Below are positions 2 through 46,284 of a DNA stretch of 53,740 nt, piece after piece. This DNA comes from an uncultured Alphaproteobacteria bacterium. GTDB lineage: Bacteria; Pseudomonadota; Alphaproteobacteria; Methylaequorales; Methylaequoraceae. The notes beneath the pieces were generated by a model. It ran no database searches. It saw only the letters and a list, made by a program, of their open reading frames with translations, and had not been told where the DNA came from. Position 1 is the first letter of the stretch; every line of letters starts with the position of its first letter. The stretch is taken from the NCBI GenBank assembly GCA_902590895.1, contig CACIYM010000004.1:1-53740 (forward strand). Reading direction: 5' to 3'. A program made the position numbers and the translations under genes.

Positions 2-3000
2 GTAAACTTTGACAATTCTATAATAACTGTTTCAGGTTTACAGGGTGGTGAAACATTAGCTTTGGATGATGATATTAATACTAACAATGTGAATGTTGGA
101 ACATATAATACTGGATCGGGTAATTTGTTAGTTTCTGATGTCAATAACTCTCATGTTACTTACAAAAAGGTAGCTGATCATGGAGGAGATGGTACTAAAG
201 TAAACTGGCCAGGAACCTCAAATCACGAACTTACTCCAGATTCTGGAGAATCAACTGAGGATTTTACACAAAGAGCACTTGAATTGATGAACACGGCTGG
301 TTCTGGAATCGCTTATTTTGTGATGACTTATTCGGATAATACCAAAACTACTGCGACTTCTGCAAAGGCTAAGGCAAGCGCTAGTGTTGTTGGATCAAGT
401 ATTAGCGGCAAAGACCTTTTTACAGTAGCGACAAATCAATCAGATATTGAAACGGCAACAAGTAAAACAGCCTCTGATTATGGAGCAGGATTTAGATTGC
501 TTGACGGAACAGGATTTGCGTCAAACTACACTATTACAAGCAATTCCTTTGCAATTACCCAGCGAGTGTTGAGTTCTTCAGGAAGCAGACTGTATGATGC
601 AACTACAACAGCTAGCTCCAGCGACTTAACTCTAAGTAATCTTGTAGGTTCCGAAACATTGACATTATCAGGAAGCGGTACATTAAGTGATGCTGATGTT
701 GCCGCCAATAAAGCAGTTTCATTAAATACATTATCTATTGCTGATAATACTGGGTTAGCTTCTAACTATACGCTTAGTGGCGGTACGCATCAGTTAACTG
801 TGAATCAACGTCCGCTAAATGCGACACTAGCCAGACAATATGACGGAACAACAGCATCTGCAGGTTCGACTTTGAGCAGCTTTGATGCGTTGCAAGGGGG
901 AGAAACTCTAACATTAAGTGGTTCTGGCACATCTGCTAGTGCCAATGTTGCTAATGGAATAGCTATGAGCAGTAATGGGAACCTTGCTCTTGTTGATGGA
1001 ACAGGTCTGGCATCGAATTATAGTTTAAACTCAACGGTAATCAATATTACAAAAAGAGTGCTGAACTCGTCGGGGTCTAAGATTTATGATGCGAACACGG
1101 ATGCGTTAGCGGCAGACATTACATTAAGTAACTTAGTCTCAGGTGAAGCCCTAAACCACTCGGGAACAGCTACGATTAGTTCAGCCAATGTGGGTAGTTA
1201 TACAATTACAAATTTAGCCGGCATTACAATCGCTGATGGCAGTGGAGGAACAGCTTCCAACTATACCCTTACTGGTGGTACACATAACTTTACGGTTAAT
1301 CCGAAAGTTGTCTCAATCCAAGGAAATAAAACGTATGACGGTAATACCACGATTAGTTCGGGTAATATTACATCAGTTGTTGGTACAGTTGGAACGCAAA
1401 CTCTTATAATTAGTGGAGGAAGCGGGACTGTCTCATCCGCTAATGCGGCGACCTATGCTAGTGCCGGTATTAATGAGGGTACCTTGACGCTGGGTAATGG
1501 TACGAATGGTGGCTTAGCAAGTAATTATACATTAACAGGCCATGCGGCAAGTTCGTTCCAAGTTACGCAAAGAGTACTAAGTTCATCTGGTAGTCGTATT
1601 TATGACGGTAGTACAACAGCCAGTTCAGGTGATTTAACTTTAAGTAATTTAGTGGGGTCAGAAACATTAACGTTATCGGGTAATGGTACACTCGCCAACG
1701 CAAATGTTGGGACGAATAAAAGTGTAACTCTGAACACATTATCGATTGCTAATGGAACAAATGGAGGTCTTGCTGCTAACTATATTTTGACTGGAGGAAC
1801 ACATCAATTAACAGTAACGCAACGAGTTGTAAATGCGACAGGAACACGTCTGTATGATGCGACATCAAATGCCAATTCTAGTGACTTAAGCCTTGGAAAT
1901 TTAGTCGGATCAGAGACATTGGTATTAAGTGGGGCGGGAACACTCGCTGATAAGAACGTTGCGGCCAATAAAACAATAGGTGTAGGCACACTTGGTCTTG
2001 CAGACGGCAGTAACGGTGGATTAGCGGCGAACTATACTTTGTCTTCTGGAACGCATTTATTGACGATTAATCAAAAACCAGTTAGCATAACTGGTACTCG
2101 TACATACGACGCAACAGCGATAACTTTGCCAACTGATTTAAGCATCGGCGGACTTGTCGGTGGTGAGTCAATATCGTTGACTGGTCAGGGATCAATTGCC
2201 GACAAAAATGTGGGTGCTGGGAAGACAATTACGCTTAATACTTTAACACTAAATAACGGAGCCAACCCAACTCACCTCGCTTCAAATTATACCTTCACCG
2301 GGGGCACTCATACCTTCGATGTTACTCAGCGAACTTTGACTTTCAGTGGGACAAAAGTATACGACGGAAATACGACAGTAAGCTCATCTGAACTTACTAC
2401 AATTACTAATTTAATCGGAGGAGAAACACTAACATTTTCTGGATCTGGTTCAGTAGCATCTGCAAACGTTCAATCAGGTCAATCAATTACTAACGGAACA
2501 CTAAGTATTAATGATGGAACTGGATTAGCAAGCAATTATAACCTAACTACGGGAACGTTTGATATCACCCAACGTTGGGTAACGCTTACAGGAACAAGGA
2601 GTTATGATGGAACAACCACCGCGGATAGTTCTGATCTAGTTATCTCAAATTTAGTAGCAGGCGAAACCCTGGGATTAACAGGAAATGGTACTGTAGCTTC
2701 TAAAAACGTAGGATCAAATAAAACAATAACTGATGTCTCGCTAACGCTAACAGATGGATCGGGTCTTGCGACGAACTATACAATTGGAACAAAAACTTTT
2801 AACATCACTCAGCAAGCCATATCAATAGATGGTTCTAAAGTTTATGACGGAAACACAACGGTAGCAGCAGCAAATATTTCGACATTTAATGGATTAGCCC
2901 TTACTGAAACTTTAACCATAAGTGGTTCTGGTACGGTGACCACACCTCAAGTTGGAACAAATAAAACAGTAACACTTGGCACACTTGCCTTAGCTGACGG

Positions 3001-6000
3001 AACTAATGGTGGTGAGGCATCCAACTACTCTTTGGCTAGTGGTACATTTGACGTAACGGCTAGACCAATTACTCTGTCTGGTAGTCGTGTATATGATGGA
3101 ACAACAACAGTAGCTAACAATGATCTTACAACATTTACTAATATTGTTTCGGGTGAATCACTTGCTCTTACTGGCTCTGGAACAATTGCAGATCAAAATG
3201 TGGGAACAAATAAAGCAGTTACCCTTGGAACACTTGCATTAGCTGATAACACAGGTAGTGCGTCAAATTATAGCCTTAGTTCAGCAACATTTGATGTAAG
3301 TCAAAGACCATTAAATATTACAGCAACGAAAGCTTATGATGGAAACACCTCAATCACCTCAGGGTCTGTTACGTTATCAAACTTAGTTGGCGTTGAAACA
3401 CTTACCACATCAGGGAATATTTCAACAAACACTATAAATGCTGGGTCTTTTTCAACCTCGGATATAACGGTAAGCTCACTATCACTATCAGATGGAACAG
3501 GGACAGCTTCAAACTACACTCTAAGTGGAGGAACTTACTCAGCCACTATTACCCAAAAGACACTAGGACTTTCAGGTATTAAAGTTTATGACTCGACAAC
3601 AGCGGCTAATTCATCAGATCTAAGTTTAACAGGATTAGTTGGATCAGAAACGCTTACTTTAAGTGGAAGTGGAACGCTTTCTACATCGTCTGTTGGCACA
3701 GGAAAAACAATTACCCTGAATACACTAGCTATATCTGATGGTAGTGGACTGGCTTTGAATTATGACTTATCAGGAGCGGCAACAATGGATGTTACAGCAC
3801 GACCGGTAACGGCTAGTGGCTCAAGAGTTTACGATGGAACAACAACTGTGAATGGAACCAATCTAACGTCAATCAGTAATTTAGCTGGAGCAGATACACT
3901 TAGTATAACGGGAGCGGGAACAGCAACGGCAAATGTCGGTAATGGTAAATCAGTAACCTTGGGATCACTAGCACTTGCCAGCGGCAGTGGAAACGCCACA
4001 AATTATTCACTTTCATCAGCAACGGTCAATATAACTCAACGTCCATTAGATTTAGAGGCTTCAAAGATTTATGATGGAACAACAACAATTAATGGATCTG
4101 ACTTTTCAACCTTTAATAATATTGTTGGTGGTGAGACGTTGTCCGTTATAGGTTCGGGAACGGTTACATCAGCCAATGTCGGAGCTGGAAAATCGATAAC
4201 ATCAGTAAATCTTGCATTAGCCAATGGAACGGGATCTGCTAGTAACTATTCAATTAATTCATTAACTGCTGACATAACTGGCAGACCGGTAACTATTTCT
4301 GGATCTCGCCTTTATGACAGCACTACAACGGCAGATAGTTCAATTCTTACAATTACTTCGGGTGTAAGTGGGGAAAATCTAACGTTGACGGGTTCTGGAA
4401 TATTAGGAGCGGCAAGTGCAGGTTCTCAAACGATAACAAATAACAATACATTAGCCTTAGCTGACGGAACCGGACTTGCCAGTAATTATACATTAACTTC
4501 AGCGACAATAAATGTAACCATAAATCCAAGAATGCTCAATGTTACATTATCAAGAGAATATGATGGAACAACAACAGTTTCAGGTGCATCATTGACACCA
4601 ACATTTGATAGTTTACAAGGCGGTGAAACACTAGCTCTTTCAGGCACAGGTTCTGTTGCAAGTGCAGATGTTGGAAGCTCTAAAGCAGTAACTTTAGGAA
4701 CAATAGTCTTGGCTGCTGGTTCTGGTAACCCAAGTAATTATACGCTTAATTCAGCTTTAATGGATGTTACCCAAAGGGTAATTAACCTTGATGGTATTAG
4801 AGCTTATGATGCCACAACAAATGTATTAAGTTCAGATATAAATACATTTGGAAATATTGTTTCAGGAGAAACTCTGACGGTTTCTGGAACAGGATCAGTT
4901 TCGACCAATTCAGTTGAAATGAATAAAGCGATTTCACTTGGGACTTTGTCTCTAGGAAACGGGTCGGGTTTAGCCGGCAACTATACTTTAGCTGGAGGAA
5001 CTCATACATTTGACATTTCCCCTTTGGCTGTAAATGTAACTGGAAGTAGACAATATAATGGAACGAATGTTATAGACAGTTCAGACTTATTGCTTACTAA
5101 TCTGTTAACAGGAGAAACAGTTAGTTTATCTGGACAGGGAACAGTTGTGTCTGCTGATGTTGGCGCTAATAAGACAGTGACATCTGTTAATTTGGCATTA
5201 ACGGGCCCTAACGCGAGTAATTATACATTAAATAGCTACACAACAAGTTTTGAAATTACACCAAAGATAATTAGTTTAAATGGGACAAAAGTTTATGATG
5301 GTCTTACTACCGTTCCGAATACAAGTTTAACAGTTACAACTGGTGTTAGTGGTCAGAGCCTTGGATTAAAAGGAGCAGGTACACTTTTATCTGAATCCTC
5401 AGGAAATGGAAAAACAGTTTTACTAGGAACCTTAGAACTTGACTCCACGGGTTCAGGCACTGCAAGTAACTTCACACTGTCCGGAGGAACACATACATTA
5501 AATGTAACTCCAAGGCCATTAACATTTACCTCATCAAGAAGTTATGACGGAACAACTACGGCAAACACATCAGATTTAACATACACATTTGGGAATTTAG
5601 TTTCAGGTGAGAGTCTGGTTTTATCTGGTTCGGGAACAGTGGCATCAAAGGATGTTTCAGCTGGAACACAAAATATTTCACTAGGAACTATTGCGTTAGC
5701 AAATAATACAGGTGTAGCTACAAATTATTCTCTAGCATCAGGCACATTGGATGTTACCAAGAAGCAAGTCAATCTTACTGGAACAAAAGTTTACGATAAT
5801 AGCGCAACACTTAACAATTCAATAATGTCAGTTGCATCTGGGCTGGTTGGATCGGAGACATTAGGATTAAGTGGTGATGTTGTAACCAATTCAGATAATG
5901 TCGGCATATACTTGGCAAGTGCTAATCAATTAAATTCTGGATCAACTACTATTTCTCTAGCTGATGGATCTAATGGTGGTTTAGCAAACAATTATACTAT

Positions 6001-8179
6001 CAATGAACAAACCATCACGATAACAAAGAGACCAATAACAATCTCAGGTACAAAAGTTTATGATGGTACAAAAGCAGTCAATGCGGGAAGCATCACAACC
6101 TTTAACAATACAGTTGGAGGACAAACTCTGACAATCTCTGGAAACACAACATTTCTAGAATCACAAAGTGTTGGATCAAGTAAGACAATAACCGTTTCTG
6201 GTTTTACACTTGGAGATGGCACCGGTGCTGCAAGTAACTACAGTCTAAGTAGCGGTACTTTTGATGTTACAACACGTTCAGTAACATTAACAACTAGTAG
6301 GATTTATGACAATACTAAGGATGTTAACGCTTCAAATCTTTCAGTGACCTTTAATAACCTTGTTGGTTCTGAAACACTTTCATTAACAGGATTAGGTGCA
6401 GTGTCTTCAGAAAATGTTAGTGCAGGACAACAAGCTGTTACACTGGGAACGTTAGCTCTGTCTGATAATACAGGTGTGGCCTCAAATTATTCTTTAACAT
6501 CGGCTACTTTAGATATTAATGTCAAGCCAGTTTCATTGAGTGGAACGAGAGTTTACGATTCGTTAGATACTGTAGCGTCGACAGATTTAACAATATCAGG
6601 TACTGTTAGTGGTCAAGATCTAACGTTGTCAGGCAGTGGTAGCATGACTGCAGGCGCTAATGTCGGGACAAACAAAACAATTAATACAACTGGATTATCA
6701 CTAGGTAATGGAGTAAGTGGAACTCCAGGATCTACATCCAACTATTCACTAGTTGGCGGGACCCATCAAATAACCATTACTCAAAGACCTGTAACAATAA
6801 GCGGATCTAGATTTTATAATTCTACAACAACAGTAAGTAGTTCTGATATCAGCACATTTAATAATACCGCTGGAGGCGAAACATTAGCGATAACAGGAGC
6901 TGGTTCTGTTGCTAGCGCTCTTTCAGGCGCAGGTAAAACTATAACACTGGGAACACTAACCCTCACAGACGGAACAGGATTGGCTTCAAACTATTCGTTA
7001 GCGAGTGGAACATTTGATGTAAACTCTAGACAGGTAAATATTTCAGGATCGAGAATTTTTGATGGAACTACTGTTGTCAATGGAACAGATTTGGTTGTAA
7101 CAACAGGTGTAGGAAGCGAGATTTTAACAGTGACTGGTACAGGAAGCATATCAAATGCTAGCGTCGGAGTAGGCAAATCTGTGACAGCTGGTACGTTAGC
7201 CTTGGCTAGCGGAAGTGGTTCCTCATCAAACTATACTATTGGTTCCATTACTCTAACAGTAACCCAAAGACCCATTAATACTGCTTTTGAAAAAACTTAT
7301 GATGCTAGTGTAAGTGTAACAAACAGCGATTTAAAAACTAACGGTATTACTAATACTGTGCTCGGACACTCACTCGCACTAAGTGGTACTGGAACTATGT
7401 CCACCACTGGCGTAGGTATAGGCAAGTCGTTGTCCGTTGGTACACTTTCTCTAAGTGGAGCTCAGTCGGCAAATTACACTCTCACTGGCGGTACTCACAC
7501 CATTGATGTAAACCCAAGAACTACAAACGCGACTGGATCAAGGCACTATGATGCTTCCACTATAGCGGGAGGTTCGGCCTTCAATACCTTTAGTAATACT
7601 GTAGGCAGCGATACCGTGACGTTATCAGGCTCAGGTAGCTTTGCATCTGCCGGCGTTGGTTCAAAAGGTGTTACTATTGGAACTTTGCAGTCAGCTCACC
7701 CTAATTATACCTTGGGGAATGCAACATTAACTGTTACACAAAGACCAGTTAATTTATTTGGTAGTAGAGTTGCCGGAGGACCAGAGGGAACAGATGTTGA
7801 GGTATCTGAACTTCGTTTTACAAACTTGCCTGCTGGTGAAACGTTGAATTTATCAGGTATTGGAAGAATTCCAAGTATTGCCGTATCAACTCATCCACTA
7901 AGTTTACATACCCTAACAATGAGTAATGGAACAGGTTTGATTTCAAATTATACTTTTGTTGGTGGGTCTTTTGTTTTTGATATAACCTCGCCTCTAAGGT
8001 CCAGAGCTGGGGTTCTGCGGGCATTACAGACAATGAGTAATGGAAATAATAGAAAGTTATTGCCATCTAAAACATCTCATCGCTCAATGCCAGCTACTTC
8101 TGAAAGAATTACAGTATCAACACCAGATCAGTCAGTTCAAGTCAATCCTTGTGTACTACAAAATGGTTACTGTAATTAA
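2..8179 (+). CDS. Giant YDG-repeat surface protein / filamentous haemagglutinin-like adhesin, 5'-truncated
   Basis: The frame is open from base 2 (VNFDNSIITVSGLQGGETLAL...), so the TTG at 62 is not the true start. About 30 tandem ~85-aa repeats of the pattern (K/R)xYDG...L.G.ETL.LSG.G....NVG..K...L....L.DG.G.ASNY.L......ITQR. S/T/G-rich; non-repeat C-terminal tail. Confidence 0.9.
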   Translation, partial: VNFDNSIITVSGLQGGETLALDDDINTNNVNVGTYNTGSGNLLVSDVNNSHVTYKKVADHGGDGTKVNWPGTSNHELTPDSGESTEDFTQRALELMNTAGSGIAYFVMTYSDNTKTTATSAKAKASASVVGSSISGKDLFTVATNQSDIETATSKTASDYGAGFRLLDGTGFASNYTITSNSFAITQRVLSSSGSRLYDATTTASSSDLTLSNLVGSETLTLSGSGTLSDADVAANKAVSLNTLSIADNTGLASNYTLSGGTHQLTVNQRPLNATLARQYDGTTASAGSTLSSFDALQGGETLTLSGSGTSASANVANGIAMSSNGNLALVDGTGLASNYSLNSTVINITKRVLNSSGSKIYDANTDALAADITLSNLVSGEALNHSGTATISSANVGSYTITNLAGITIADGSGGTASNYTLTGGTHNFTVNPKVVSIQGNKTYDGNTTISSGNITSVVGTVGTQTLIISGGSGTVSSANAATYASAGINEGTLTLGNGTNGGLASNYTLTGHAASSFQVTQRVLSSSGSRIYDGSTTASSGDLTLSNLVGSETLTLSGNGTLANANVGTNKSVTLNTLSIANGTNGGLAANYILTGGTHQLTVTQRVVNATGTRLYDATSNANSSDLSLGNLVGSETLVLSGAGTLADKNVAANKTIGVGTLGLADGSNGGLAANYTLSSGTHLLTINQKPVSITGTRTYDATAITLPTDLSIGGLVGGESISLTGQGSIADKNVGAGKTITLNTLTLNNGANPTHLASNYTFTGGTHTFDVTQRTLTFSGTKVYDGNTTVSSSELTTITNLIGGETLTFSGSGSVASANVQSGQSITNGTLSINDGTGLASNYNLTTGTFDITQRWVTLTGTRSYDGTTTADSSDLVISNLVAGETLGLTGNGTVASKNVGSNKTITDVSLTLTDGSGLATNYTIGTKTFNITQQAISIDGSKVYDGNTTVAAANISTFNGLALTETLTISGSGTVTTPQVGTNKTVTLGTLALADGTNGGEASNYSLASGTFDVTARPITLSGSRVYDGTTTVANNDLTTFTNIVSGESLALTGSGTIADQNVGTNKAVTLGTLALADNTGSASNYSLSSATFDVSQRPLNITATKAYDGNTSITSGSVTLSNLVGVETLTTSGNISTNTINAGSFSTSDITVSSLSLSDGTGTASNYTLSGGTYSATITQKTLGLSGIKVYDSTTAANSSDLSLTGLVGSETLTLSGSGTLSTSSVGTGKTITLNTLAISDGSGLALNYDLSGAATMDVTARPVTASGSRVYDGTTTVNGTNLTSISNLAGADTLSITGAGTATANVGNGKSVTLGSLALASGSGNATNYSLSSATVNITQRPLDLEASKIYDGTTTINGSDFSTFNNIVGGETLSVIGSGTVTSANVGAGKSITSVNLALANGTGSASNYSINSLTADITGRPVTISGSRLYDSTTTADSSILTITSGVSGENLTLTGSGILGAASAGSQTITNNNTLALADGTGLASNYTLTSATINVTINPRMLNVTLSREYDGTTTVSGASLTPTFDSLQGGETLALSGTGSVASADVGSSKAVTLGTIVLAAGSGNPSNYTLNSALMDVTQRVINLDGIRAYDATTNVLSSDINTFGNIVSGETLTVSGTGSVSTNSVEMNKAISLGTLSLGNGSGLAGNYTLAGGTHTFDISPLAVNVTGSRQYNGTNVIDSSDLLLTNLLTGETVSLSGQGTVVSADVGANKTVTSVNLALTGPNASNYTLNSYTTSFEITPKIISLNGTKVYDGLTTVPNTSLTVTTGVSGQSLGLKGAGTLLSESSGNGKTVLLGTLELDSTGSGTASNFTLSGGTHTLNVTPRPLTFTSSRSYDGTTTANTSDLTYTFGNLVSGESLVLSGSGTVASKDVSAGTQNISLGTIALANNTGVATNYSLASGTLDVTKKQVNLTGTKVYDNSATLNNSIMSVASGLVGSETLGLSGDVVTNSDNVGIYLASANQLNSGSTTISLADGSNGGLANNYTINEQTITITKRPITISGTKVYDGTKAVNAGSITTFNNTVGGQTLTISGNTTFLESQSVGSSKTITVSGFTLGDGTGAASNYSLSSGTFDVTTRSVTLTTSRIYDNTKDVNASNLSVTFNNLVGSETLSLTGLGAVSSENVSAGQQAVTLGTLALSDNTGVASNYSLTSATLDINVKPVSLSGTRVYDSLDTVASTDLTISGTVSGQDLTLSGSGSMTAGANVGTNKTINTTGLSLGNGVSGTPGSTSNYSLVGGTHQITITQRPVTISGSRFYNSTTTVSSSDISTFNNTAGGETLAITGAGSVASALSGAGKTITLGTLTLTDGTGLASNYSLASGTFDVNSRQVNISGSRIFDGTTVVNGTDLVVTTGVGSEILTVTGTGSISNASVGVGKSVTAGTLALASGSGSSSNYTIGSITLTVTQRPINTAFEKTYDASVSVTNSDLKTNGITNTVLGHSLALSGTGTMSTTGVGIGKSLSVGTLSLSGAQSANYTLTGGTHTIDVNPRTTNATGSRHYDASTIAGGSAFNTFSNTVGSDTVTLSGSGSFASAGVGSKGVTIGTLQSAHPNYTLGNATLTVTQRPVNLFGSRVAGGPEGTDVEVSELRFTNLPAGETLNLSGIGRIPSIAVSTHPLSLHTLTMSNGTGLISNYTFVGGSFVFDITSPLRSRAGVLRALQTMSNGNNRKLLPSKTSHRSMPATSERITVSTPDQSVQVNPCVLQNGYCN
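560..7990 (+). repeat. Array of ~30 protein-level YDG repeats (~250-270 bp each), diverged at the DNA level
   Basis: I counted 29 YD(G/A/S/N)-like motifs plus one degenerate final unit. Recurrent ETLxLSG and ASNYT/S motifs. Confidence 0.85.
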
Positions 8180-44487: not shown

Positions 44488-44509
44488 AGTTAAAGACCAA
44501 TTTTATAAT

Positions 44510-45868
44510 ATGAAAAAAACAGATGATCAAATAGATTTTAATTTTTCTAGGCCAATAGATGTTCAAATAAATTTAGAAGTAGAATTTATTAATTTTGTTT
44601 TAAAAGAAATAAATTATGAAAAAGAAAAAAATTTAATTTTTGATAAACATCTAAAATTCTTAATTTTAGAGCTTTTTTATTGTTGGCTTGAATCTAATAA
44701 CCAAATGCTTTCAGTTTCTATGTCAAAAAGAGGCTACTTATCTAACTCAAGATATAATCCAAACAAGATATCTTCATACACAATAAGAGTTATAAATTTT
44801 CTAAAAAAAGAAAATTATATCCAGTTTTATCCTGGCTTTTTTGATTCAATAAGAAAAAAAAGCAGGTTATCAAGAATTAAAGCTTCGGATAAATTAATCA
44901 ATCTATTTAAAAATATCAAATTACCTCCAAAAATAAAAATCAATCACCCTTTAAGGGAGTTTTTAATTAAAACCGATGGAAAAAAAAAGATCGAATACTC
45001 TGATGATTTTGAAACACAAGACGTTAAAGAAATAATCTACAATTATAATGAATTAATTTCTAAGACAATTATCGACATCCCACTACTGGAGGAACCATAT
45101 GTAAATAGACATGATAATAAAAAAATAATTATTTCAAGAACTGCGTCAAACGCTAATTATATATTTCAAGGAAGCCCATTTAAAAAATTTAAAATTGAGG
45201 GATGCTGGTGGAATAGAATTGATCTAGAATTTTTAGCAATATATGCAAAATTTTTTATTGTAAATGATAGTCCTACAGTTTTTTTTGATCTAAGTGAAAA
45301 ATTTAATATTTTTTTAAAAAAAAAAATTGGGATTGAAAATATTTTTAAAAAAAAAGACTTAGAAAATTTTGGGAGATCTCAAATATGTTATCTTATAATA
45401 AAAGGAGTAAACTCAAAAAATTTTGAAAGTTTTTTTAGGTCTGTTTTAACAGAAAAAAAAAAATATTTTAAAAACGAAGGTTTACCTGCTAAGGAAATAA
45501 AAAACAGGCTTCATGTTTTTATAGAAAATAACCAGTTTATTTCAAATTATTTTTTTAGAAGTTATAGATTAAATTGGGATGAATATTTGATGGATGTATT
45601 TTATAATTTATTAAAGAAATGCGTCCCAGCAAATATTCCTGTCTACTTAATAAAAGATAAAATTTATTCGCCTAAAACTTTTTCTGAAATAGTTAAATCA
45701 AATCTTGATCAAATTTTAAAACTAACATTGAGTGAAAAAAAAAATGAAATTGGTTTCACAGATTGCGCATCATATAACTTTAAATCAAAAGGTTTTTTTA
45801 GTAGAATGTTCAAATCAAGTAATTCTAGTTCAAGACGATATATTGAAAGAGTAAAAACTTATAAATAG
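44510..45868 (+). CDS. Hypothetical protein; putative degenerate family-A DNA polymerase / T7-RNAP-like fold
   Basis: Long ORF with SRPIDV, SRYNP, YNELI..T.IDIP, GCWWNRI, NDSPTVFFDLS, RSQ...I..GVN and IPVYLIKD.I, recalling the 'GGRFYGGWWQ' hypothetical polymerase-like family. The CDS is secure; the function is inferred. Confidence 0.55.
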   Translation: MKKTDDQIDFNFSRPIDVQINLEVEFINFVLKEINYEKEKNLIFDKHLKFLILELFYCWLESNNQMLSVSMSKRGYLSNSRYNPNKISSYTIRVINFLKKENYIQFYPGFFDSIRKKSRLSRIKASDKLINLFKNIKLPPKIKINHPLREFLIKTDGKKKIEYSDDFETQDVKEIIYNYNELISKTIIDIPLLEEPYVNRHDNKKIIISRTASNANYIFQGSPFKKFKIEGCWWNRIDLEFLAIYAKFFIVNDSPTVFFDLSEKFNIFLKKKIGIENIFKKKDLENFGRSQICYLIIKGVNSKNFESFFRSVLTEKKKYFKNEGLPAKEIKNRLHVFIENNQFISNYFFRSYRLNWDEYLMDVFYNLLKKCVPANIPVYLIKDKIYSPKTFSEIVKSNLDQILKLTLSEKKNEIGFTDCASYNFKSKGFFSRMFKSSNSSSRRYIERVKTYK

Positions 45869-45876
45869 ATTAAATT

Positions 45877-46284
45877 ATGGTGACTACAAAATTTGGACTT
45901 AATCAATTGAAATTTAATAAGGGTAGTAAGATTTATGCAAAAGGAGATAAAGCTGATTTTGCATATTATGTGCATGTAGGTAAAGTAAATATATACTCCC
46001 CAGGCGGTTTATTACTTGGTCAAATTGGTGAAGGTGAAATTTTTGGCGAAAGAGGTCCCTCACTTGACGAGTCAAGATCAATAACAGCTGAAGCCGCAAC
46101 AAGTTGTGTTTTATACCCTATCAGCGAAAAAACTTTAAAGGAGAAGATTAAGACTGCGGATCCGGTCTTAAGGGCTATCCTGAGAAGTCTACTTATTAGA
46201 TTGAATGACATAAATGTTAAGAGTGAGGACTTTTGGAGAAATCTTAACGTTATGACATCCCTTACCAAAGGTGATGAAGGTTAA
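45877..46284 (+). CDS. Stand-alone cyclic-nucleotide-binding domain protein
   Basis: G..IY..GD.AD.AY.V..G.V, GEIFGE and RS phosphate-binding cassette, C-helix; no HTH. Confidence 0.88.
   Translation: MVTTKFGLNQLKFNKGSKIYAKGDKADFAYYVHVGKVNIYSPGGLLLGQIGEGEIFGERGPSLDESRSITAEAATSCVLYPISEKTLKEKIKTADPVLRAILRSLLIRLNDINVKSEDFWRNLNVMTSLTKGDEG

Follow-up and report, generated by a model that had tools for sequence, protein, structure and literature searches.

What has become of a polymerase-like protein that is kept, beside a gene for a stand-alone cyclic-nucleotide-binding domain (CNBD), among the housekeeping genes of an alphaproteobacterium? The question is raised by contig CACIYM010000004.1 (assembly GCA_902590895.1, order Methylaequorales), of which positions 1 to 53,740, the whole stretch of DNA analysed and hereafter called the window, include the gene of a protein of 452 amino acids (aa), named here X452, and that of the CNBD protein. 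The list of open reading frames (ORFs) and the Pfam scan agree with the initial annotation, a model's reading of the sequence alone, in that the two genes are co-oriented, 8 bp apart and surrounded by housekeeping genes. Our analyses indicate that X452 is very probably a domesticated, catalytically dead descendant of divPolA2, a divergent family-A DNA polymerase (PolA) of Caudoviricetes first seen in 110 barbavirus genomes, according to the available text of Yutin et al. (Virol J 2024;21:200, PMC11348598). The genes are located as follows.

44510..45868, + strand: X452 gene, a 452-aa ORF (stop codon included), divPolA2-type mini family-A polymerase homologue, catalytically degenerate
45869..45876: intergenic spacer, 8 bp between the X452 and CNBD genes, without a terminator-like site
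45877..46284, + strand: CNBD gene, a 135-aa stand-alone cyclic-nucleotide-binding-domain protein with no output domain

X452 belongs to no Pfam family, and the same holds for 27 of its distant homologues; a kinase match in NCBIfam, of 16 bits only, was discarded as spurious. The protein matched phrog_4756, of unknown function (3.9e-11), phmmer retrieved 577 representatives at E≤1e-3 (among 1.84 billion), and a search of the ESM Atlas returned unnamed clusters only. Against PDB sequences, neither phmmer nor profile searches yielded a useful result for X452 or its family, with no match at the sequence level, and no fused or longer homologues (792-2260 aa) were found, which is weak evidence by the tool's own statement. 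In the alignment of the distant homologues the consensus reads GGRFYGGWWQ / INxxPTxExDYSGLH / RxxxKxLxLxAxNAK / IPVLxIHDSxI. The profile of the X452 clade matched that of the intact family in hhalign over 451 columns (probability 100%, E 5.5e-63). Both results place X452 in the GGRFYGGWWQ/DYS/RxxxK/HDSF family, which had been named in the initial annotation and is real. The intact-family profile matched in its turn the barbavirus protein QCQ59806.1 (probability 99.7%, E 4.2e-26), which appears as the PolA of barbavirus MK719715 in the available part of the supplement of PMC11348598, is treated as divPolA2 in the text of that paper and was also matched by tblastn with P0143, an intact homologue of X452. 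It must be noted that the homology between X452 and divPolA2 is transitive, via the cellular intact members; direct hhalign of the X452-clade profile with a single phage divPolA2 gave a spurious alignment (probability 1%). The parent family, regarded at first as unrecognised, is already known, since Yutin et al. described its phage members under the name divPolA2 in 2024 (PMC11348598).

According to the available text of PMC11348598, divPolA2 has a palm that is apparently active and an N-terminal globular domain for which no similarity was found, and has neither an exonuclease nor a recognisable thumb. X452 shares with it full-length homology through the cellular members, the order of the motifs, the succession of N-terminal globular domain, palm and fingers, and the lack of an exonuclease and of a canonical thumb. 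The two differ in their genomic setting: divPolA2 lies in variable phage or island neighbourhoods, sometimes as 2-3 paralogues, whereas X452 is a single-copy, syntenic core gene. The parent family is carried by 238 phage records, and outside the order of X452 it is patchy and sometimes multi-copy, being present in 22 of 397 sampled genomes of the class. The loci of its intact members are island-like: of five, three have a tyrosine integrase within ~2 kb and a fourth has a transposase, and of 53 further loci, 14 have an integrase or resolvase gene as one of the three nearest ORFs, beside restriction and other defence-type genes. In one locus (L027, G137:C18, 9143-13822) the intact homologue stands between an RNase H gene and a DDE transposase, with an AAA_23/AAA_15 ATPase gene beyond the RNase H, a context that looks defence- or island-type. 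In another case, one marine alphaproteobacterial single-cell genome carries two intact copies (L054 and L057), 63% and 43% identical to P0143; therefore, the active family is common and multi-copy in neighbours of the X452 lineage.

The assignment of the fold was based on structural models, in which X452 is divided into two domains.

44510..44938, + strand: N-terminal winged-helix-like domain of X452 (aa 1-143), from model matches and invariant columns
44939..45772, + strand: palm-fingers domain of X452 (aa 144-421), family-A polymerase-like by VIA-align and Foldseek, with decayed catalytic motifs

The AlphaFold2 model of X452, built from a 30-row alignment, reached a pLDDT of 84.3 and a pTM of 0.85. 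With Foldseek, the top 15 chains were all family-A DNA polymerases, apicoplast apPOL being the best (E 2e-3, probability 0.99). With VIA-align, run against 48,161 representative chains (stated background for unmatched models, Z 7-8), ranks 1-11 were all PolA or T7-like/mitochondrial RNA polymerases (RNAPs), matched by model residues 144-421 at Z 6.8-9.3 with 219-249 residues aligned; the best match was Pol I of Aquifex (8jrb_B; Z 9.3, rmsd 5.0, 235 aligned residues), and T7 RNAP (3e2e_A) scored Z 7.9. The model of P0143 (pLDDT 92.1) gave 60 Foldseek matches at E≤1e-3, of which the 46 listed were all PolA, and its best VIA-align match was apPOL (9qsc_A; Z 12.8, rmsd 3.9, 255 aligned), with the top 13 all PolA or single-subunit RNAP. 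The family-A/T7-like fold, which had been proposed at the outset with a Foldseek comparison of an AlphaFold model as a check, is settled because the intact homologue matches PolA and single-subunit RNAPs more strongly than X452 does.

X452 has in common with family-A DNA polymerases (Klenow, Bst, apPOL) and T7-like RNAPs the palm-fingers fold, and its parent family has the four superfamily motifs. It differs from them in that its polymerase part comprises ~280 residues, as against at least 400, and in that catalytic residues have been lost. Furthermore, it is without the 3'-5' exonuclease domain of family-A DNA polymerases, which the available text of PMC10201439 calls structurally required in PolAs; no part of the X452 model matched an exonuclease domain among the matches listed. 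The N-terminal 130-140 residues matched winged-helix proteins in the models of X452 and P0143 alike (Z 5.4-7.0), in agreement with the winged helix suspected at the outset. Residues ~21-143 of X452 matched ADAR1 Zbeta (1xmk, Z 6.5) and MarR/PadR-type proteins (Z 5.7-6.2). The domain for which no similarity is given in the available text of PMC11348598 thus has winged-helix matches here, at Z ~6-7. It is basic (pI 9.7, net charge +11), as is the whole of X452 (pI 9.6, net +28); nearby soluble enzymes have pI 5.3-6.2.

The residues that would be needed for nucleotidyl transfer were compared position by position. The motif names and the roles of these positions in PolA and T7 RNAP are those which we take to apply; equating the motifs of the family with those of the superfamily is based on their order, on the fold match and on one weak hhalign match, in which only the motif C IHDSF of the intact profile was aligned with T7 RNAP, on 809-838 (E 0.11, probability 0.5%). 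The remnants in X452 are the following.

45200..45214, + strand: GCWWN (aa 231-235), remnant of GGRFYGGWWQ (T/DxxGR-type), Arg lost and WW kept
45287..45289, + strand: D260, motif A Asp position, with DYS changed to DLS
45374..45415, + strand: RSQICYLIIKGVNS (aa 289-302), remnant of motif B (RxxxKxLxLxAxNA), Cys at the Lys position
45635..45667, + strand: IPVYLIKDKIY (aa 376-386), remnant of motif C (IPVLxIHDSF), His changed to Lys, Asp383 kept and Ser changed to Lys

All the strings quoted in the initial annotation (SRPIDV, SRYNP, GCWWNRI, NDSPTVFFDLS, RSQICYLIIKGVNS and IPVYLIKDKIY) are found in the X452 translation, and its coordinates for the two Asp codons are exact (D260 at 45287-45289 and D383 at 45656-45658). 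It had also called for an alignment with full-length family members, which bore out the loss of the GGR Arg, the motif B Lys and the motif C His and the retention of both Asp in this genome. Motifs were counted in 103 clade proteins (102 clusters of at least 430 aa plus X452), and intact and clade proteins were compared in 99 full-length representatives plus X452 (91 others and nine clade rows). In the clade, the T/DxxGR-type Arg was present in four of the 103 proteins, the motif B Lys in none (Cys in 80) and the motif C His in none; the motif B Arg position was not aligned. The WW pair was kept in all 103. The motif A Asp position was occupied by D in 77, N in 19, S in six and E in one, and the motif C Asp position by D in 70, E in 29 and S in four. 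Among the other representatives, motif A Asp was D in 91/91 and the motif B Lys was Lys in 90/91; Arg, motif A Asp, motif B Lys and motif C Asp were all kept in 85 of 91, versus none of the nine clade rows. Since Asn or Ser replaces the motif A Asp in 25 of 103 proteins, the suggestion of a domesticated, inactive or repurposed fold fits more strongly than had been claimed. A carboxylate that is replaced in this way in a quarter of the orthologues is not a catalytic one; as far as the sequences can tell, the X452 clade presumably does not polymerise. This is also where X452 parts from divPolA2, whose palm is described as active in the available text of PMC11348598: X452 is without the Arg, the motif B Lys and the motif C His, and its motif A Asp is not fixed.

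Some observations weigh against reading X452 as a dead polymerase that binds nucleic acid. Foldseek gave no match of X452 itself at E≤1e-3, and its best Z (9.3) is only modestly over the background of the aligner. This genome, like most members of the clade, has both D260 and D383 (D in 77 and D or E in 99 of 103, respectively), and X452 may still have some residual metal binding. Finally, high pI is common in low-GC proteomes, and nine of the 16 ORFs listed have a pI of at least 9.

With respect to its distribution, of the 42 genomes of the order, which all belong to one family, 37 carry X452 in single copy, including 9/9 high-quality genomes and 14/14 genera; the five genomes without it are 54-80% complete. 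The arrangement folD-yggT, X452-CNBD, DAO is conserved in 11/11 related loci, and the pair is adjacent in 37/37 genomes, so that the word "inserted" used in the initial annotation does not hold. Given this single-copy, syntenic and order-wide presence, X452 was captured long ago and became fixed when the lineage began, and is therefore not an insertion in this genome. In a maximum-likelihood tree of 100 rows, the nine degenerate proteins stood on one side of a branch (SH-aLRT 100), with one state change, although their unusual amino-acid composition was flagged by the program. The degenerate clade had a single origin and has been inherited vertically. One genome (G043, contigs C12 and C34) contained two copies of the whole X452-CNBD pair; its reported contamination is 5%, and this may be two strains binned together, not a duplication.

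The sequence of X452 changes fast and is nevertheless constrained. In the 11 related loci its identity was 39-95%, versus 77-100% for its neighbours; the dN/dS ratio was 0.08-0.16, in both domains, and 0.01-0.07 in the neighbouring genes. X452 is under purifying selection. In 35 of 37 genomes the ORF is intact over its full length, which hardly varies, and the proteins are 33-95% identical. In G041 the ORF is interrupted, and in G056 it has decayed into pieces in three frames with 21 stops, yggT and the DAO gene being intact. Of the 38 invariant clade columns, 25 are in aa 1-123, including MSKRGY...SRYN...SS, and aa 1-123 and aa 144-210 are the parts best shared between the clade and the active family. 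A streamlined genome of ~1-1.6 Mb keeps this captured 452-aa gene in 14/14 genera, which points to a genuine function.

The following course of events would account for these data. A divPolA2 copy from marine phages or integrase-bearing islands would have settled in the chromosome of the bacterium from which this order of low-GC, small-genome marine alphaproteobacteria descends, and the fixed copy would then have lost the residues required for nucleotidyl transfer. Since then it has passed down vertically as a core gene, in single copy and kept by purifying selection, and its function would be exerted via the conserved parts, that is, the basic winged-helix-like N-terminal domain and the adjoining aa 144-210, which are common to the active family. 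By analogy with other dead polymerase homologues, the likely role would be that of a nucleic-acid-binding factor, either a regulator or a DNA- or RNA-bound scaffold. We consider it slightly more probable than the contrary that X452 acts as such a non-catalytic factor through its conserved basic N-terminal half. In this regard, the parts conserved in the active and dead branches (aa 1-210, WW) mark a non-catalytic need, probably the recognition of template or target, and the parts lost in the dead branch mark the catalytic core of the parent family.

The second gene of the pair encodes an intact, stand-alone cNMP-binding domain, as had been annotated: Pfam cNMP_binding (PF00027) was found on aa 12-92 (1.3e-14, above the cut-off), with no other Pfam match. 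Its profile matched 97 PDB sequences at E≤1e-3, the best being the CNBDs of PKG/PKA and Bd1971. The diagnostic part of the domain is the following.

46033..46095, + strand: phosphate-binding-cassette region of the CNBD protein (aa 53-73, GEIFGERGPSLDESRSITAEA), with G57, E58, R67 and A71 invariant

The protein is 66-86% identical across 32 aligned cluster representatives, and the cassette FGE...R..TA is invariant among the aligned orthologues; its invariant Glu and Arg are presumably the canonical ribose- and phosphate-contacting residues. CRP/FNR regulators have this same canonical CNBD with its cassette, followed by a C-terminal helix-turn-helix that the present protein, which ends at residue 135, does not have; the CRP model of NCBIfam covers it by model positions 27-137 of 214 only (30 bits versus a cut-off of 266). 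A DNA-binding domain would have to come in trans, and the winged helix of X452 is a mere candidate for it. In PADLOC, the protein matched only the CNBD portion of a TIR effector model (7.9e-6). In contrast to Pycsar and CBASS, the window has no adjoining dedicated cyclase or killing-domain effector, and no cyclase or effector domain was detected by Pfam among its 42 scanned ORFs. A class III cyclase is present elsewhere in the genome and in 13 of 15 relatives.

If the two genes are functionally linked, X452 would be co-transcribed with the CNBD gene and a cyclic nucleotide from the class III cyclase would modulate its binding, in which case both proteins would form a two-protein analogue of a CRP-type regulator. 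Such modulation of X452 by the CNBD protein is plausible from the strict adjacency, the identical distribution and a single joint decay, and we put it forward as tentative, being rather doubtful of it. Production of the cyclic nucleotide by X452 is unlikely because its active site is dead. Quite possible, on the other hand, is that X452 is the same dead divPolA2 descendant and the pairing is incidental, the element having landed next to, or together with, the small gene, after which the gene order froze. Against this stands, first, that the CNBD orthologue is directly downstream of X452, on the same strand and 8-65 bp apart, in all 37 genomes (38 of 38 loci) that have X452. The same five incomplete genomes are without both genes, which thus have an identical phyletic pattern. 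Outside the order, the best match to the CNBD protein among the 397 sampled genomes was only 39% identical, and therefore both genes are confined to the lineage. Finally, in G056, the only genome where X452 is clearly a pseudogene, the CNBD gene is frameshifted alongside the shattered X452, between intact flanks. The class III cyclase encoded in the genome and in 13 of 15 relatives also speaks for a functional pair. As to transcription, no terminator was found between the two genes in the terminator scan, RNA-library contigs from three studies cover parts of X452, and one of them (X3 record 8, 45724-45995) bridges the X452-CNBD junction. The parts of X452 without such cover are no evidence of silence.

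The evidence on the side of an incidental pairing must also be considered, and it detracts from the proposed link. Synteny in the lineage is near-frozen: all five genes of the block are syntenic in the 11 of 11 loci, so that adjacency is weak evidence. The rates of the two genes differ widely (78-99% identity for the CNBD protein versus 39-95% for X452 in the related loci), the CNBD protein evolving about ten times more slowly, where tight co-evolution would predict otherwise. The frameshift in G056 occurred only once and may stem from faulty assembly. The RNA evidence consists of contigs only, for which DNA carry-over is possible and from which a single transcript is not demonstrable. A survey for a conserved CNBD partner, which had been proposed as a test of the pairing, held within the order (adjacent in 37/37 genomes) and failed in the intact family, since a CNBD ORF was present in none of 80 intact-family loci (575 kb) searched with a hidden Markov model that recovered all the control CNBDs. 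Besides, at least three other short stand-alone CNBD ORFs are present in the genome, two of them beside the cyclase, and therefore this CNBD protein need not act through X452. Complex prediction for X452 and the CNBD protein, both supplied as alignments, scored 0.00 in two runs without controls and is neutral with respect to binding.

Several related candidates and observations can be recorded here. What looks in G018 like a fusion of X452 and the CNBD protein (an open frame of 608 aa) is an artefact, produced by N's across the junction and the genes that hide stop codons. A cyclic-nucleotide link for the whole family was likewise rejected: among the three nearest ORFs, a class III cyclase was found in 2 of 53 loci and GGDEF in 1 of 53, which, with CNBD in 0 of 80, were treated as chance. 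In uncultured marine alphaproteobacteria, a class III adenylate/guanylate cyclase lies upstream of the intact divPolA2 gene in L066 (ORF 1851-3182) and L069 (ORF 1229-3055); one further intact locus has a GGDEF gene (L110) and another a BLUF gene (L058) nearby. These neighbours touch on the theme of nucleotide signalling and are probably due to chance. In the genome studied, contig C25 (L034, L035 and L037) carries a 794-aa class III cyclase ORF (match C25:4043-4609) beside CNBD ORFs of 147 and 171 aa, with a 582-aa CNBD protein ~3 kb away, and contig C36 has a CNBD ORF of 130 aa. Therefore, small stand-alone CNBD proteins are recurrent in the lineage.

A third explanation, which we consider improbable, is that X452 is a decoy against mobile elements, that is, a dead copy that keeps the recognition domain and occupies the sites or partners of incoming divPolA2 phages and islands, possibly gated by the CNBD protein. 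It is in accord with the occurrence of the parent family in the phages and recombinase-bearing islands mentioned above, including co-occurring marine alphaproteobacteria, with an evolution of X452 several times faster than that of its neighbours, and with the fact that the conserved part is the N-terminal domain common to the active members. The 42 genomes of the order yielded no second, intact divPolA2 copy, which might indicate exclusion, but this zero is not significant against a background of ~5.5% (22/397). On the other hand, the dN/dS of 0.08-0.16 gives no sign of an arms race, X452 had no match in PADLOC and its locus is a housekeeping one, not a defence island.

Very unlikely, in our judgement, is that X452 is still an enzyme, rewired around D260 and D383, which makes a short nucleic acid or nucleotide signal sensed by the CNBD protein. 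Both residues are indeed kept here, the motif C position is acidic in 99 of 103 proteins, the polymerase-like domain is under purifying selection (dN/dS 0.08-0.15) and a nucleotide sensor is encoded next door. Such an enzyme, however, would have to work with Asn or Ser for the motif A carboxylate in 25 of the 103 orthologues, with the triphosphate-binding motif B Lys missing in every one and the motif B Arg position not aligned, and with the primer-terminus Arg in only four, whereas catalytic residues are near-invariant in the active family; in addition, the class III cyclase is a conventional source of cyclic nucleotide. That X452 is a decaying remnant without function, as its G+C content of 22-24% (the lowest of the region, against 26-39% in the flanks), its being the fastest-evolving gene of the block and its two damaged copies might suggest, is hardly credible and already largely refuted by the selection data, with the full-length ORF intact in 35 of 37 genomes of 14 genera, the 38 invariant columns and the low dN/dS in streamlined genomes of 1-2 Mb.

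Families Y and B offer known cases of polymerase homologues that are catalytically dead and are retained as scaffolds. In the literature searched, we found no report of an inactive family-A polymerase kept in bacteria, nor of a cellular, vertically inherited descendant of divPolA2. The available texts of PMC12926913, PMC10201439 and PMC11348598 describe no inactive or chromosomally fixed divPolA2 branch, and divPolA2 is not listed in those of two censuses of family-A or bacterial polymerases (PMC10201439 and PMC12926913). The dead divPolA2 descendant proposed here would resemble ImuB, as presented in the available text of PMC12926913, in that a polymerase fold is kept under selection after the loss of catalytic residues, which by analogy would imply a non-catalytic role. 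ImuB is a family-Y protein whose partners in the mutasome are ImuA and DnaE2 (PMC12926913, available text), whereas X452 is of family A, originates from a mobile element and has another neighbour. X452 is therefore offered as the first candidate for an exapted, inactive bacterial family-A polymerase, tied by position to a cyclic-nucleotide sensor, in a group of abundant and mostly uncultured ocean bacteria. The most complete form of the proposal, which we regard as unlikely, is that exaptation of a polymerase fold would have given rise to a DNA-binding protein under the control of a second messenger, confined to one streamlined marine lineage. In it the winged helix and the former primer-template cleft would recognise nucleic acid by sequence or structure, and a docked CNBD would gate this recognition with cAMP or cGMP, the two proteins forming a regulator or an anti-element decoy. 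If that were true, X452 would be the first domesticated inactive family-A polymerase in bacteria, and a true CNBD link would represent a new kind of output for bacterial cyclic-nucleotide signalling.

The surroundings of the pair are those of a housekeeping region. According to Pfam, folD and yggT are on one side of X452 and a DAO-type FAD oxidase is beyond the CNBD gene; farther out in the window there are argG, a pabB-like gene, an aminotransferase IV gene, and ccm and haem genes. None of the 42 window ORFs scanned belonged to an integrase, phage or mobile-element family, as the initial annotation had stated for the vicinity of the pair. The start codons of yggT (- strand) and X452 (+ strand) are divergent and 22 bp apart (44488-44509), and therefore any promoters would be inside the neighbouring coding sequences; a promoter scan at the locus gave 11 promoter-like sites, versus 13.8 expected. 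At the other end of the window, positions 62-8176 (+ strand) contain an ORF of 2705 aa with 18 stretches matching the YDG domain (PF18657, E 3.4e-227), a giant repeat protein that is large for a genome of ~1.1-1.6 Mb.

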